This document shows positions 1,454-32,000 of a stretch of DNA of 32,000 bases, one piece after another. A program made the position numbers and the translations under genes. Every line of letters begins with the position of its first letter. Position 1 is the stretch's first letter. Location: NCBI GenBank assembly GCA_030690755.1, contig JAUYGA010000030.1, positions 1-32,000 of the forward strand, in the 5' to 3' direction. This DNA comes from Nanobdellota archaeon. GTDB lineage: Archaea > Nanobdellota > Nanobdellia > Woesearchaeales > JAUYGA01. The notes below the pieces were generated by a model. That model worked only from the letters and a program-made list of their open reading frames with translations, did not search any database and was not told the DNA's origin.

Positions 1454-2770
1454 TTATCTGTTGGTTGCTTTGTCGGATATATCGCTTCTTATTGCCCATC
1501 CGCCTTCAACAGCAATTTTTGATGCTGCAGCATAGGCAGTTGTTTTTGCATCTATGATTCCATCAGCTGAATATGCAGTAACTCCTAAAACACGGCCACC
1601 GGCAGTGACGATTTTTTTATCTTCGCCTGCAAATGCTGTGCCTGCATGGAACACTTTAACATTTTGCATTGAAGCCACTTCTGCTAGGCCTTTAATTTCA
1701 AGTCCTTTTTTGTAATCACCAGGATAGCCTTGTGATGCAAGAACAACGCAGCAAGCTGCCCCGCCTTTTATTTCTAATTTTATTTCGTCAAGTTTTCCTT
1801 CAAGAGCAAGTGATAATGGCGCATACAATCCATTTTTCAACATCATCATTGCAGGCTGGCATTCTGGATCGCCAAATCTTGCATTGAACTCAATTACTTT
1901 TGGTCCATCTTTTGTCATCATCATTCCAGCATACAAAAATCCTTTGTATTCATGACCTCGTTCTTTCATTCTTTGCACTATAGGATTCATTATTTTATTT
2001 GCAACACAATTTACAACATGGAGTGGCGCGATTGGTGCTGGGCCATATGCGCCCATACCGCCGGTGTTTGGTCCTTTGTCGCCATCAAGCAGCGGTTTGT
2101 GGTCTTGAAATGAGATTCCAATTGGTAGAACTCTGTTTCCGTCAGATATTCCAAAAATTGAAAATTCTTCTCCAAAAAGTCTTTCCGCAATCAATACTTC
2201 TTGCCCATATGCGTCTGCATGTTTTGTTAATTCTTCTAAAGCTTCTTTTTTTGAATCACAAACTGTAACGCCTTTTCCTGCTGTTAGACCTCGCGCTTTT
2301 ATCACAATTCCCTCAGAATGAAAGTGCTTTATTGCCTCTGCAGCCTCTGCTGTCGAATGACATTTTGTTGATATCGCTTGAAGTATCCCAAGCTCTTTCA
2401 TTAAGTCATGAGAATAAAATTTGTCTGATTCAAGCTGTGTTGCTTCTTTTGTCGGGCCAAAAGCGCGATTGTATCCTTGTGAATTCAGATAATTGACAAT
2501 TCCGTTATTGAGAGGGTCTTCTGGGCCAACAACAACCAGGTCGATTCCTTCAGATTGTATGAATTTAAGAAAATCTGGGAATGATTCTGGTTTTATAAAA
2601 CTCTTCAAATAATTTGATGCTTTGTTTTCGCTTGCTGTTCCTGCATTTCCTGGCATGTAAATAACTTGAGCCACTTCATCGCTTTTGGCAAGGCTCTCTC
2701 CTAGTGCATGTTCTCTTCCACCTGAACCAATAACTGCAATCTTTTTTCCACCCATTTTGGCACCCTCCAA
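1454..2770 (-). CDS. purD: phosphoribosylamine--glycine ligase (GAR synthetase)
   Basis: It has the KIAVIGSGGREHAL N-terminus, ATP-grasp segments (GIVIKARGLTAGKGV, VIEFNARFGDPE) and a length of about 430 aa. Confidence 0.9.
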   Translation of the reverse strand: MEGAKMGGKKIAVIGSGGREHALGESLAKSDEVAQVIYMPGNAGTASENKASNYLKSFIKPESFPDFLKFIQSEGIDLVVVGPEDPLNNGIVNYLNSQGYNRAFGPTKEATQLESDKFYSHDLMKELGILQAISTKCHSTAEAAEAIKHFHSEGIVIKARGLTAGKGVTVCDSKKEALEELTKHADAYGQEVLIAERLFGEEFSIFGISDGNRVLPIGISFQDHKPLLDGDKGPNTGGMGAYGPAPIAPLHVVNCVANKIMNPIVQRMKERGHEYKGFLYAGMMMTKDGPKVIEFNARFGDPECQPAMMMLKNGLYAPLSLALEGKLDEIKLEIKGGAACCVVLASQGYPGDYKKGLEIKGLAEVASMQNVKVFHAGTAFAGEDKKIVTAGGRVLGVTAYSADGIIDAKTTAYAAASKIAVEGGWAIRSDISDKATNR

Positions 2771-2934
2771 TTATTTTTATTTCTGGTCGCTAAATTAGTT
2801 TATAAGTTTATCTGTGTTGCAGAATATATTTACTTTTTAGAAGTACTGACAAATCTGAATTTATTTTAAAAAATTAAAAGAAATATTTTTAGTGAAAATA
2901 AAGCAGTTAATTTATCTAACCCTTTTAGACTAAT

Positions 2935-19794: not shown

Positions 19795-19938
19795 ATGCTG
19801 AATATATTCAATAATCTGGAATACCTGGAGCCGAGATGCCCAAAATGCGGAATTGTCCTAGATTATGATGGAAACACAAAATACGAAGAAAAACACAAGG
19901 CCCACGTCTGCTGCCATTGCGGCGTTGTTCTGAAATGA
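19795..19938 (+). CDS. small zinc-ribbon protein (47 aa), not in the ORF track
   Basis: My translation is MLNIFNNLEYLEPRCPKCGIVLDYDGNTKYEEKHKAHVCCHCGVVLK. It has two Cys pairs (CPKC ... CCHC) with typical zinc-ribbon spacing. Confidence 0.45.
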   Translation: MLNIFNNLEYLEPRCPKCGIVLDYDGNTKYEEKHKAHVCCHCGVVLK

Positions 19939-20219: not shown

Positions 20220-20298
20220 AGAAGTAGATGGATTTTTTAAATATCCCTTAAGAAAGATAGATTTGCGATGGGTTTTTATTATTTTGACTATTCCTTTA

Positions 20299-20322
20299 TT
20301 TTGCGCCGATGATGACGTTATC
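20299..20322 (+). repeat. 24-nt exact direct repeat copy 1 (contains a C-box AUGAUGA); second copy at 20459-20482
   Basis: ttttgcgccgatgatgacgttatc is identical at both sites, exactly 160 bp apart. Confidence 0.9.
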
Positions 20323-20462
20323 AACCCCTAACTTTTACGAAAAGTTAGGACCAAAAGAGGTCAGGCATAAAGCCTGACTACGCTCTTTGAAAGTAGCTTT
20401 GATGCGAGCGGTTTTTAATTCTTTCTCGATGGTTTTTTAAAAGAAAATGCAATATTACTTTT

Positions 20463-20526
20463 GCGCCGATGATGACGTTATCCCCGCGATGGTTTAGTCC
20501 ATCGATAAGATAACTTACTGAGGCGC
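20463..20526 (+). ncRNA. C/D-box-like K-turn hairpin RNA candidate
   Basis: 5' GCGCC pairs with 3' GGCGC. The C box AUGAUGA (20469-20475) faces the D box CUGA (20518-20521). Inner stems are GUUAUC/GAUAAC and CGAUGG/CCAUCG. Confidence 0.55.
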
Positions 20527-20690
20527 GCTTAAATTCAGTTTTTTTAAGTCATTTAAATTGCAAACAATAGTTCACAATTTAAGCATCATCCCAGACTTCA
20601 TCGTCTTTGTTATCCCAGAGCTCTTTCATTTTCTGCTGCTGAACTCTATGTAGAAATTTGTCGTATTGACTGCTTTTTTTTATCAGCATT

Positions 20691-22082
20691 TTATTTCTCT
20701 TTAATGAATCCGTATCCAATCAGTCTGAATCTTGTTCCGACTCTTCTGGAGATTGTTACTCTTGCGCCGATGTCTGCGCATACCGGTATCTTAAGCTTGC
20801 AGTGGAACTTGTTTTTTCCGAGAGAATCGACTATTCCTACAGTCGCGGATGAATTGACATTCAACATTAAAGGTTCGCCAAGTTTTATCGGTTCTACATC
20901 AAGCTCTTTATCAGATCCGACAACTCTCTTGAGAAGGTGCGGCTGCATTGTTAGCTCGTACCAAATCTCTGGCAATTTTCCTGGCAGGCCTACGATTGCT
21001 CCGCTTAATGTATCAGCTTTTACAATGCCTGGATCAAGCTGTGTCAGTATCCCGACTGATCCGCCTGGATGAATCTGATTTACTTTGACGTTTCCTGTGA
21101 TGGCGCTGACTATTTTTGTTTTTATTGGTATCCATACTTTTCTGTTTTTCTCTTCAATTTCTCGTCCAGGTTTTATTTCGATTTCATCTCCGACTTTCAG
21201 TATTCCTTGCTTTAATGATCCTCCAAGGACGCCGCCGACAATCTTTTCAGGTGAAGAACCTGGTTTGTTGATATCAAATGATCTTGCCACAAACATGATT
21301 GGTGTTTTTGTGTTGTCTCTTTCTGGCGTAGGTATTTGCTTTTGTATTGCCATTATCAATGCATCGATGTTTATTGTGTGCTGGGCAGAAATTGGTATGA
21401 TTGGAGCGTTTTCATAGCTTGTCCCTTTAAGGAAGGATTTTATCTGCTGATAGCTTCTTTGCGCCTGCTCTTTTGGGACTAGGTCTATCTTGTTTTGGAC
21501 AACAATTATTTTTTTTATTCCGACAATCTCTAAAGCTGTCAGATGTTCCCGTGTTTGAGGTTGCGGGCAGAATTCGTTTGCTGCTACGAGAAGCAAGGCG
21601 CCGTCCATTATGTTTGCGCCAGACAACATTGTCGCCATAAGTGATTCGTGCCCAGGCGCGTCGATGAATGATACTTTTCTTTGAGGAACTGCAGCTGCTC
21701 CGCATTTTGGGCATTCTTTTTTTGCGCAGTAGCATTCTGGCTCTTCGCAGTTCGGGCATTTATAGATTACAGCGTCAGCATATCCCAGTCTTATTGTGAT
21801 TCCTCTCTTGATTTCTTCAGAATGCGTGTCAGTCCATTTGCCTGAAAGTTTTTCTGTCAGCGTTGTCTTCCCATGATCTACATGTCCGACAAAACCAATG
21901 CTTACTTCTGGCTGAGAACTCTCTATTTCATTGCCGCTTGCCTCTTCTAGAACAAAGTCTTTTTTCTTGGCAGCGGTTGCAGTTGTTTTCGGCTTTTGTT
22001 TCTTCTCTTTAACGCTTTTAACTTTTGCATCTGTTGATTCGTCAACTTTTTCTATTTTTTCAGTTTCCTTTTTCTTAGCCAT
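20691..22082 (-). CDS. translation initiation factor aIF2 gamma subunit, with a Lys-rich N-terminal extension
   Basis: It has a G1 motif ([10 protein letters not shown]), DAPGHE, NKIDL and a zinc knuckle ([20 protein letters not shown]). I prefer the start at MAKKK (22082) because tttataaa (22108-22115) lies about 29 nt upstream. The ORF track extends the ORF to 22124. Confidence 0.9.
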
Positions 22083-22140
22083 AGTTATTAACAAAAAGTC
22101 GAATGAGTTTATAAATTTAAACAATCAACAGAGAATAGTA

Positions 22141-30471: not shown

Positions 30472-30550
30472 CTGTGTTTTATGAAATGGTTGCACGCAAA
30501 ATAAGATACTCCAACAAACAGGACGGCCAATATTATGATATTACAATTCT
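30472..30550 (-). pseudogene. relic copy of the dedA 3' end (direct repeat R1)
   Basis: A gapless hand alignment with 31700-31778 gives 63 of 79 identical positions. The relic translates as ...AVLFVGVSYFACNHFIKHRK, against the dedA C-terminus ...AVLLVGVSYFVYHHFIKHRK. Confidence 0.75.
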
Positions 30551-31683: not shown

Positions 31684-32000
31684 TTACTCGTTTATTTTTC
31701 TGTGCTTTATGAAATGGTGGTACACAAAATAAGATACCCCGACCAACAAAACTGCCAATATTATTATGTCAAGAATCTGGCTGTATTTGAGTATTTCATC
31801 CCAGTTACTTTTCAGGTAAAATCCGACAACTGTCAGGAATGTGTTCCATAATCCTGCGCCCAAAACAGTGTAGAATGAGAATTTCCAGATATTCATCTCA
31901 GCGATTCCTGCAGGGATAGATATCAGATGCCTGACAACAGGTATGAATCTGCTGATAAAAATAGTCGGACTGCCATGCTTTTTGAAGAAACTATGGGTCC
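31684..32000 (-). CDS. dedA: DedA-family membrane protein, C-terminal part (the gene runs off the right edge)
   Basis: The reverse translation contains RFIPVVRHLISIPAGIAEMNIWKFSFYTVLGAGLWN, a typical DedA/SNARE-associated segment. Confidence 0.75.
   Translation of the reverse strand, partial: THSFFKKHGSPTIFISRFIPVVRHLISIPAGIAEMNIWKFSFYTVLGAGLWNTFLTVVGFYLKSNWDEILKYSQILDIIILAVLLVGVSYFVYHHFIKHRKINE
31700..31778 (-). repeat. direct repeat R2 (functional dedA 3' end) matching R1 at 30472-30550
   Basis: See R1. The two copies are 1228 bp apart and bracket the MNT-HEPN pair. Confidence 0.75.

Follow-up and report, generated by a model that had tools for sequence, protein, structure and literature searches.

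A probable, partly degenerate box C/D guide sRNA gene of Woesearchaeales, duplicated at its 5' end beside a possible mobile element

Why should the beginning of a small RNA (sRNA) hairpin occur a second time just upstream of the hairpin itself, and what kind of RNA does the hairpin represent? Both questions are raised by an intergenic locus in the first 32,000 nucleotides (nt) of contig JAUYGA010000030.1, and this whole stretch is called the window below. The contig is 36 kb long and belongs to an archaeal metagenome-assembled genome (MAG; assembly G000) of the order Woesearchaeales, which came from a groundwater metagenome and comprises 1.66 Mb at 36% G+C and 87% completeness. Contigs of G000 are given C-numbers, genomes or loci of relatives are labelled G111, G399 or with L-numbers, and all order-wide comparisons were made on 401 Woesearchaeales genomes. 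The explanation favoured here, with a probability of roughly 0.6, is that the hairpin at 20463-20526 is a box C/D guide sRNA gene, partly degenerate, and that the two copies of a 24-mer covering its start are a target-site duplication from the insertion of a 136-nt element. The evidence for the RNA is given first, followed by that for the insertion; the coordinates are collected in Table 1.

The 64-nt RNA and its Woesearchaeales family

The RNA is closed by a terminal stem, in which GCGCC (20463-67) pairs with GGCGC (20522-26). An earlier note on this DNA had described a box C/D-type kink-turn (K-turn) RNA here, and the description holds, as the stem, the C box and the D box can be read directly. 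The K-turn with its short stem is that of an archaeal box C/D sRNA. Two inner stems were also found, GUUAUC (20477-82) with GAUAAC (20509-14) and CGAUGG (20487-92) with CCAUCG (20499-504). The hairpin has a minimum free energy of -26.6 kcal/mol (z = -3.8), and 0 of 200 shuffled sequences folded equally well. At gathering thresholds Rfam gave no match anywhere in the window; the larger annotated RNA spanning 20299-20528 that the earlier note had considered did not appear. At relaxed thresholds there were weak generic matches only to snoRNAs (small nucleolar RNAs) of the C/D type, snoR38 among them. The genes of the core proteins fibrillarin, Nop5 and L7Ae are all encoded in G000. In a model of L7Ae with the RNA, the protein contacts 20468-71 and 20518-21 (0.57, versus at most 0.11 for shuffled RNAs), which is counted as consistency only. 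L7Ae may bind the C/D kink-turn, and Nop5 and fibrillarin would then assemble on it.

The sequence pattern TGATGA-N-GTTATCCC was found in 25 of the 401 genomes, once in each; a reversed control pattern gave one match in all. Among the 24 matches other than the window gene, 21 have a CUGA exactly 12 nt past the C box, and 17 show the textbook archaeal sRNA layout: they have both a C' and a D box, and their closing stems covary. The layout of the 17 reads: stem, RUGAUGA, 12-nt guide, CUGA, a spacer of 1-12 nt (mostly 4-5), UGAUGA, a second guide of 10-21 nt (mostly 12-13), CUGA, and stem. The closing stems differ in sequence across the orthologues and keep their complementarity. Most orthologues also have an A/T box 25-30 nt upstream. 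Their second guides are variable and match other 23S ribosomal RNA (rRNA) sites, for example the adjacent AGUUACUCC, 574-583 and 2559-2569. Within the sample of the phylum that was searched, the extended pattern was seen only in Woesearchaeales. The window gene is the sole copy of the guide in G000, and has the C box, one nucleotide, GUUAUCCC(C) and the fixed 12-nt register. The recurrence of the pattern in the order and the canonical layout of the orthologues indicate that the window gene is a member of a real guide family. A search of the literature on box C/D sRNAs in DPANN archaea found nothing relevant; the present family documents a conserved box C/D guide in this under-studied lineage.

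The guide and its site in 23S rRNA

The D' guide, which follows the C box, pairs through its positions 20477-86 perfectly over 10 nt with 23S rRNA 2468-2477 (CGGGGAUAAC); in the peptidyl-transferase centre this segment is the strand GGGGAUAAC. With a D' box 12 nt past the C box, the box+5 rule pairs C20483 with G2471, which lies two positions 5' of AUAAC; we take this G to be G2446 of E. coli. The segment thus has the length (about 12 nt), the complementarity (at least 9 nt) and the target position at box+5 of a guide. An equally good 23S match was obtained for 7 of the 831 12-mers that follow C boxes genome-wide and for 241 of 20,000 shuffled guides, which puts the chance at 0.8-1.2%. In the family as a whole, the D' guide would bring G2471 to a distance of five base pairs from the D' box, where canonical members are predicted to 2'-O-methylate it.

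The weak snoR38 match points to the same place. The snoR38 consensus aligned the guide core GUUAUCCC to 20477-84, and the Rfam consensus (ACAGUUAUCCCUGU and then CUGA) selects the same G, within GGGAUAAC. The snR38/snoR38 site is Gm2815 in yeast, Gm4362 in human and Gm2805 in Arabidopsis (PMC8817022). That an archaeal family is directed at the same peptidyl-transferase-centre nucleotide as eukaryotic snR38 suggests an ancient or convergent need for its modification. A second C/D-like sequence was noticed at C41:~2700-2790 (minus strand), where ATGATGA is followed by GGAGTAACTT, antisense to 23S 2459-2468 and adjoining the target of the window sRNA; no clear D box was seen there. The guide GGAGTAACTT is also the second guide of orthologues in six genomes.

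The interior of the window RNA may be read differently. The earlier note took it for a structured K-turn hairpin rather than a methylation guide, and as an alternative the RNA could be an L7Ae-binding K-turn RNA without guide function, such as an L7Ae decoy, a regulator or a stable relic. It had rightly reported that C' and D' are missing and that the interior is self-paired: the D' position (20488-91) reads GAUG and the C' position (20499-505) CCAUCGA, where the orthologues have CUGA and UGAUGA; no UGAUGA is present, and the two Watson-Crick stems leave the interior almost wholly base-paired. The window RNA also folds much tighter than most orthologues (-26.5 versus about -4 to -23 kcal/mol), and the D guide is without a target. 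However, the guide is an invariant element of the canonical family, and its perfect peptidyl-transferase-centre match is kept in the correct register; were the K-turn alone important, the guide would have been free to drift. Moreover, partly self-complementary guides occur in some canonical orthologues too. An RNA without guide function is therefore considered rather unlikely, and the view that the hairpin is no methylation guide is not followed here.

Some of these features nevertheless count against a guide sRNA, and they should be read together with several others. Archaeal small ribonucleoproteins (sRNPs) normally need the C'/D' motif for methylation by the D' guide; the window RNA is without the internal boxes that define an archaeal box C/D sRNA, and its guide is half-sequestered in a stem. 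The earlier note had named two segments for comparison with rRNA and transfer RNA (tRNA); the first matches 23S as described, and for the second, the D guide, no target was found in the 23S rRNA or the 14 tRNAs of G000. The assembly includes the 23S rRNA, but the 16S rRNA was not found in it. A naive genome-wide scan of 10-mer guides, similar to snoscan, gave 43 matches to 23S versus 44 to the decoy. A look for transcript evidence found no RNA sequencing run among those listed. Sequence conservation, which speaks for the gene, was assessed with a relative's 224-nt contig (X2) from another groundwater study, which covers 20462-20685 with 19 substitutions and 7 gaps. It has no listed difference over 20462-20533, and 16 substitutions and 8 indel entries over 20534-20634. 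Up to 3 substitutions are unlisted and possibly lie near the ends, including inside the hairpin; even so, the divergence is at most about 5% in the hairpin versus about 24% in the next 100 nt.

The 24-nt repeat and the hairpin element

The 24-mer TTTTGCGCCGATGATGACGTTATC is found at 20299-20322 and 20459-20482, with 24/24 identity and 160 nt apart, exactly as first noticed, and these are its only two copies in the whole 1.66-Mb assembly. The identity suggests that the event was recent. A direct repeat of at least 13 nt flanked a random anchor in the same layout at 30 of 20,000 positions (0.15%), and an upstream duplicate was present at 0 of the 24 orthologous sRNA loci. The three strong hairpins that had been noted after the upstream copy are real (H1, H2 and H3), and no GGCGC closure follows them.

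These hairpins are part of a multi-copy non-coding element, termed family B. The arms of H1 are CCTAACTTTT and AAAAGTTAGG, the linker ACCAAAAGAG occupies 20350-59, and T runs are found at 20412-16 and 20433-38. The H1-linker-H2-H3 segment has at least 11 copies in the assembly, several of them at contig ends, which indicates that the repeat breaks the assembly. Covariation was analysed in H1 and H2: 95% of the cells were paired, 7 of 17 pairs had changed on both sides, and 0 of 500 shuffles scored as high. Elsewhere the strict H1-linker pattern occurred only in Woesearchaeota MAGs of another family. No Rfam match was found for the hairpin element, and a literature search on such elements in Woesearchaeota gave nothing relevant.

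Different local sequences are duplicated around different copies of family B. On C51 of G000, the duplicated stretch comprises 22-28 nt from the 3' end of a tRNA, and on C82 it is the first 55 nt of an open reading frame (ORF). The sequences duplicated in other genomes come from the 3' ends of tRNA-Arg(TCG), tRNA-Arg(CCT), tRNA-Ile, tRNA-Asn and another tRNA and are 13-23 nt long, with 21 nt at L122, 17 nt at L123, 22 nt at L126 and 13 nt at L046. The family is thus a multi-copy element with differing local direct repeats. H1 always abuts the left repeat within 0-6 nt; the right end is variable. At the tRNA-Arg(TCG) locus, G111 has the element and a 16-17-nt duplication, and the congeneric G399 has the same flanks with a single copy and no element. 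On account of the recurring repeat-element-repeat order, the polymorphism between G111 and G399 and the absence of duplicates from the orthologous sRNA loci, the 24-mers are taken for a target-site duplication. Staggered cleavage followed by fill-in is favoured by the occurrence of one and the same element at targets that are not related to each other, each time between perfect local repeats.

Could the 24-mers be the attL and attR sites of a tyrosine-recombinase integration instead, with the 136 nt as the remnant or cis-mobilisable miniature of a larger integrative element? The tRNA-linked repeats run from the T-loop GTTC to the tRNA 3' end, and the block from T-loop to 3' end is reportedly the classic integrase identity block (Williams 2002). 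Tandem stacking at one tRNA is also seen (L122 and L126), G000 has five tyrosine recombinase genes, one of them 1.3 kb from an element-bearing tRNA, and the window repeat ends in an imperfect palindrome (GATGAC/GTTATC). However, near-identical elements lie at unrelated targets, and the local repeat is perfect in each case; the targets are several different tRNAs, the 5' end of an sRNA, the start of an ORF and a further RNA. A fixed attP core cannot yield different local repeats. A circle of about 160 bp would be an implausible substrate, no integrase adjoins the window copy, and the strict element pattern had no match in IMG/VR viral contigs. Site-specific integration by a tyrosine recombinase is thus judged improbable, though by no means negligible.

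Several loci with family B have features of their own. At L122 (JAHWIA010000075.1) and L126 (JAHWHT010000062.1), a single tRNA 3' end has two elements in a row, with a separate copy of the tRNA end after each of them, and compensatory changes distinguish the two H2 hairpins of L122. At C82:~2150-2400 (minus strand), the first 55 nt of the ORF (MDNSVNKRTIERL...) are duplicated around a family B-like element, whose tail contributes AGGTGA, a motif resembling a Shine-Dalgarno sequence, 8 nt ahead of the intact ATG. At C200:1820-2033 (minus strand), a tRNA-Arg(TCG) gene has a 140-nt anticodon-loop intron with a family B element inside; 15 nt of the tRNA 5' end recur 60 nt upstream, and C200:3339-4445, about 1.3 kb off, encodes a tyrosine recombinase. 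With introns allowed, ARAGORN found only 14 tRNA genes in G000, and many others may hide behind unusual introns or be unassembled. The only reverse transcriptase gene of the assembly is at C38:2877-3494 (minus strand; a 377-aa frame), and nothing was found that ties it to the element.

Besides the 24-mer, a shorter sequence recurs. The 9-mer CGATGGTTT is present at 20427-35 and 20487-95, and a near-copy CGATGGGTTT at 20266-75; the earlier note had correctly seen that the 9-mer recurs, with positions one base too high. It had also suggested that the upstream copy is the same hairpin interrupted by an insert of about 105 nt. The tie to an insertion is kept, but a 24-nt target-site duplication beside a 136-nt mobile element reads better. 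A related scheme would start with a tandem duplication of the sRNA 5' part (24-mer through CGATGGTTT, about 37 nt), after which the element entered the upstream copy and displaced CCCG. The recurrence of the 9-mer, with a chance of about 3% by our own estimate, speaks for this scheme, as does the near-copy about 32 nt before the upstream 24-mer, which mirrors the downstream layout. It requires two events where one suffices, however, and all other copies have the simple repeat-element-repeat layout. In addition, the family B copy on C216 shares the tail up to ...TTCTTGTCG, so that the element accounts for TCG, if not more, of the 9-mer. We regard a preceding tandem duplication as quite improbable. 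As a separate observation, the first two CGATGG(G)TTT copies overlap TATA-like boxes, and each of the two is followed by a 24-mer after about 32 nt.

The target-site duplication by an inserted element has its own difficulties. The three occurrences of CGATGG(G)TTT within 230 nt (20266, 20427 and 20487) are unexplained by the insertion model. Family B has no terminal inverted repeats, its 3' end is variable, and the duplication length of 13-55 nt fits no known transposase. Moreover, an empty site for the window's own locus was not found among metagenome relatives or in the contigs compared with it. No contig joint skips the insert, and the relatives of aIF2-gamma in metagenomes are at most 68% identical, with a C/D motif nearby in none of them. 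The X2 contig starts within 2-3 nt of the first base of the right repeat, as expected for a filled/empty graph branch; low coverage fits equally.

Known systems with some resemblance to family B were also examined. A guide-plus-scaffold RNA of the IscB/Cas9/TnpB omega-RNA type was rejected, as no nuclease is linked and the 'guide' is in every case identical to the DNA beside it. Elements of the IS200/IS605 or IS91 type make no duplication. In the case of integron attC sites, CCTAAC/GTTAGG of H1 resembles the core sites, but the two lie at a distance of 11 nt from each other and the element as a whole is no palindrome. A casposon was dismissed for want of terminal inverted repeats and a Cas1 link, and a CRISPR-like repeat-spacer-repeat order because the 'spacer' is itself a repeated element.

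Table 1. Features of the locus, in window coordinates
Feature	Position	Strand	Remarks
Gene-free stretch	between small zinc-ribbon ORF 19795-19938 (+) and aIF2-gamma 20691-22124 (-)		750 nt
TATA-like box	20273..20285	+	about 24 nt before G20303; candidate original promoter of the truncated copy and element
Left 24-nt copy	20299..20322	+	4-nt leader and first 20 nt of the sRNA; read as target-site duplication
Inserted non-coding family B element (putative)	20323..20458	+	136 nt; multi-copy, covarying; ends in an A/T-rich tail
Family B hairpins	H1 20327-49, H2 20360-78, H3 20381-410	+	
TATA-like box TTTTTTAAAAG	20433..20443	+	candidate promoter for the intact gene, with G20463 about 25 nt downstream; lies in the element tail
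Right 24-nt copy	20459..20482	+	start of the intact gene
Box C/D sRNA gene (probable)	20463..20526	+	divergent member of a Woesearchaeales family; from sequence, fold, orthologues and weak C/D snoRNA model matches
C box AUGAUGA	20469..20475	+	from sequence; preceded by G20468; GAUGAUGA spans 20468-75
D' guide CGUUAUCCCCGC	20476..20487	+	same 12-nt register before the CUGA D' box in about 21 orthologues
Watson-Crick hairpin CGAUGG-UUUAGU-CCAUCG	20487..20504	+	occupies the place of D' box, spacer and C' box in orthologues
D-guide position UAAGAUAACUUA	20506..20517	+	pairs back onto the D' guide
D box CUGA	20518..20521	+	from sequence

Proposed history and relation to known systems

A possible course of events can be outlined. 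The ancestor of the window gene would be a canonical two-guide member of the Woesearchaeales sRNA family. In the window copy, D', C' and the second guide are replaced by the Watson-Crick hairpin, the 3' segment pairs back on the guide, and one K-turn and the guide are kept. This copy may still methylate its target, may only chaperone the folding of that rRNA segment, or may be decaying. As a natural one-K-turn variant with a self-sequestered guide, it could be used to test the contribution of the second box pair. The 136-nt element would then have been inserted at the 5' end of the sRNA gene, giving the 24-nt target-site duplication. Its A/T-rich tail might supply the intact gene with a TATA-like box at the right distance; the orthologues have A/T boxes at a distance like that of the 20433-43 box. 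The old promoter might drive a chimeric transcript, composed of the truncated C-box fragment and the element and ending at the T runs.

A broader proposal is tentative, and we hold it with less than even confidence. The insert might represent an as yet undescribed class of Woesearchaeota mobile elements, non-coding, conserved in structure and 65-200 nt in length. Their insertion sites would be the ends of stable-RNA genes (T-loop to 3' end in tRNAs, the 5' end of a C/D sRNA, and another structured RNA). Such elements would make duplications of 13-55 nt, have a precise H1 end, depend on a trans-acting enzyme, and bring promoter or terminator signals. If this were true, non-canonical tRNA introns in DPANN archaea might have their origin in such insertions; the 140-nt tRNA-Arg intron with one copy inside was described above. 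The element bears on the rearrangement of tRNA and sRNA genes in tiny archaeal genomes, and may partly explain the fragmentation of assemblies.

Other repeated structures were encountered during the analysis. Family C, a structured RNA or element that occurs in multiple copies, is about 130 nt long and is closed by a covarying stem of 12-16 bp (GTATGTGCATAGCATC / GATGCTATGCACATAC); it is present in 35 of the 401 genomes and has no Rfam match. Its places include C92:2487-2714, C180:3811-4015, C191:1-205, both ends of C177, C198:1-130, the end of C225, and C170, with relatives at L037-L054. In G000 it measures about 230 nt, seemingly with a family B element inside and a diverged 23-nt flanking duplication (18/23 identical). 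At its start, this duplication agrees with GCGAGCG, the 3' arm of H3, which suggests that copies carry some flank. Within the window, the 79-nt direct repeats of an MNT-HEPN cassette (30472-30550 and 31700-31778) have no family B hairpins beside them and represent a separate insertion. In the first half of the gene-free stretch, a GC-rich three-way-junction repeat occurs twice.

Comparison with known systems places the two parts of the locus differently. The window gene is similar to the canonical archaeal box C/D sRNAs (the Pyrococcus sR families and the orthologues L144-L166) in its C/D boxes, closing stem, 12-nt guide spacing, size of about 60 nt, and the accompanying L7Ae, Nop5 and fibrillarin genes. 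It differs from them in that the D'/C' K-loop place is taken by a 6-bp Watson-Crick hairpin, and in place of the second guide it has a segment that is complementary to the first. With eukaryotic snR38, snoR38 and human snR38A-C (RF00213), it shares the box C/D class, a D' guide with GUUAUCCC, and the homologous G in the peptidyl-transferase centre of the large subunit; whereas its RF00213 score of 20.4 bits is far under the gathering threshold of 45. The window gene is archaeal, has its own candidate promoter and is without D' and C'. The likeness consists in the boxes and a guide that universal rRNA sequence imposes, and is no demonstration of common descent.

The family B element is comparable to the MITEs (miniature transposable elements with inverted repeats) and other small non-autonomous insertion elements of prokaryotes, for example the Correia elements of Neisseria: these are also short, non-coding, multi-copy and hairpin-rich, have duplicated target flanks, and possibly an outward promoter. 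However, family B is without terminal inverted repeats, its duplications are variable and 13-55 nt long versus 2-10 nt in MITEs, one of its ends is precise and the other variable, and it strongly prefers the ends of stable-RNA genes. Long variable target duplications are made by IS1634-type elements. The integrative elements of tRNA genes, which use tyrosine integrases, are similar to family B in the duplication of the tRNA 3' end from the T-loop on, in stacking at one tRNA and in the long repeats; whereas family B is only 65-200 nt long, encodes nothing, uses heterologous targets, and has no linked integrase or transposase identified.

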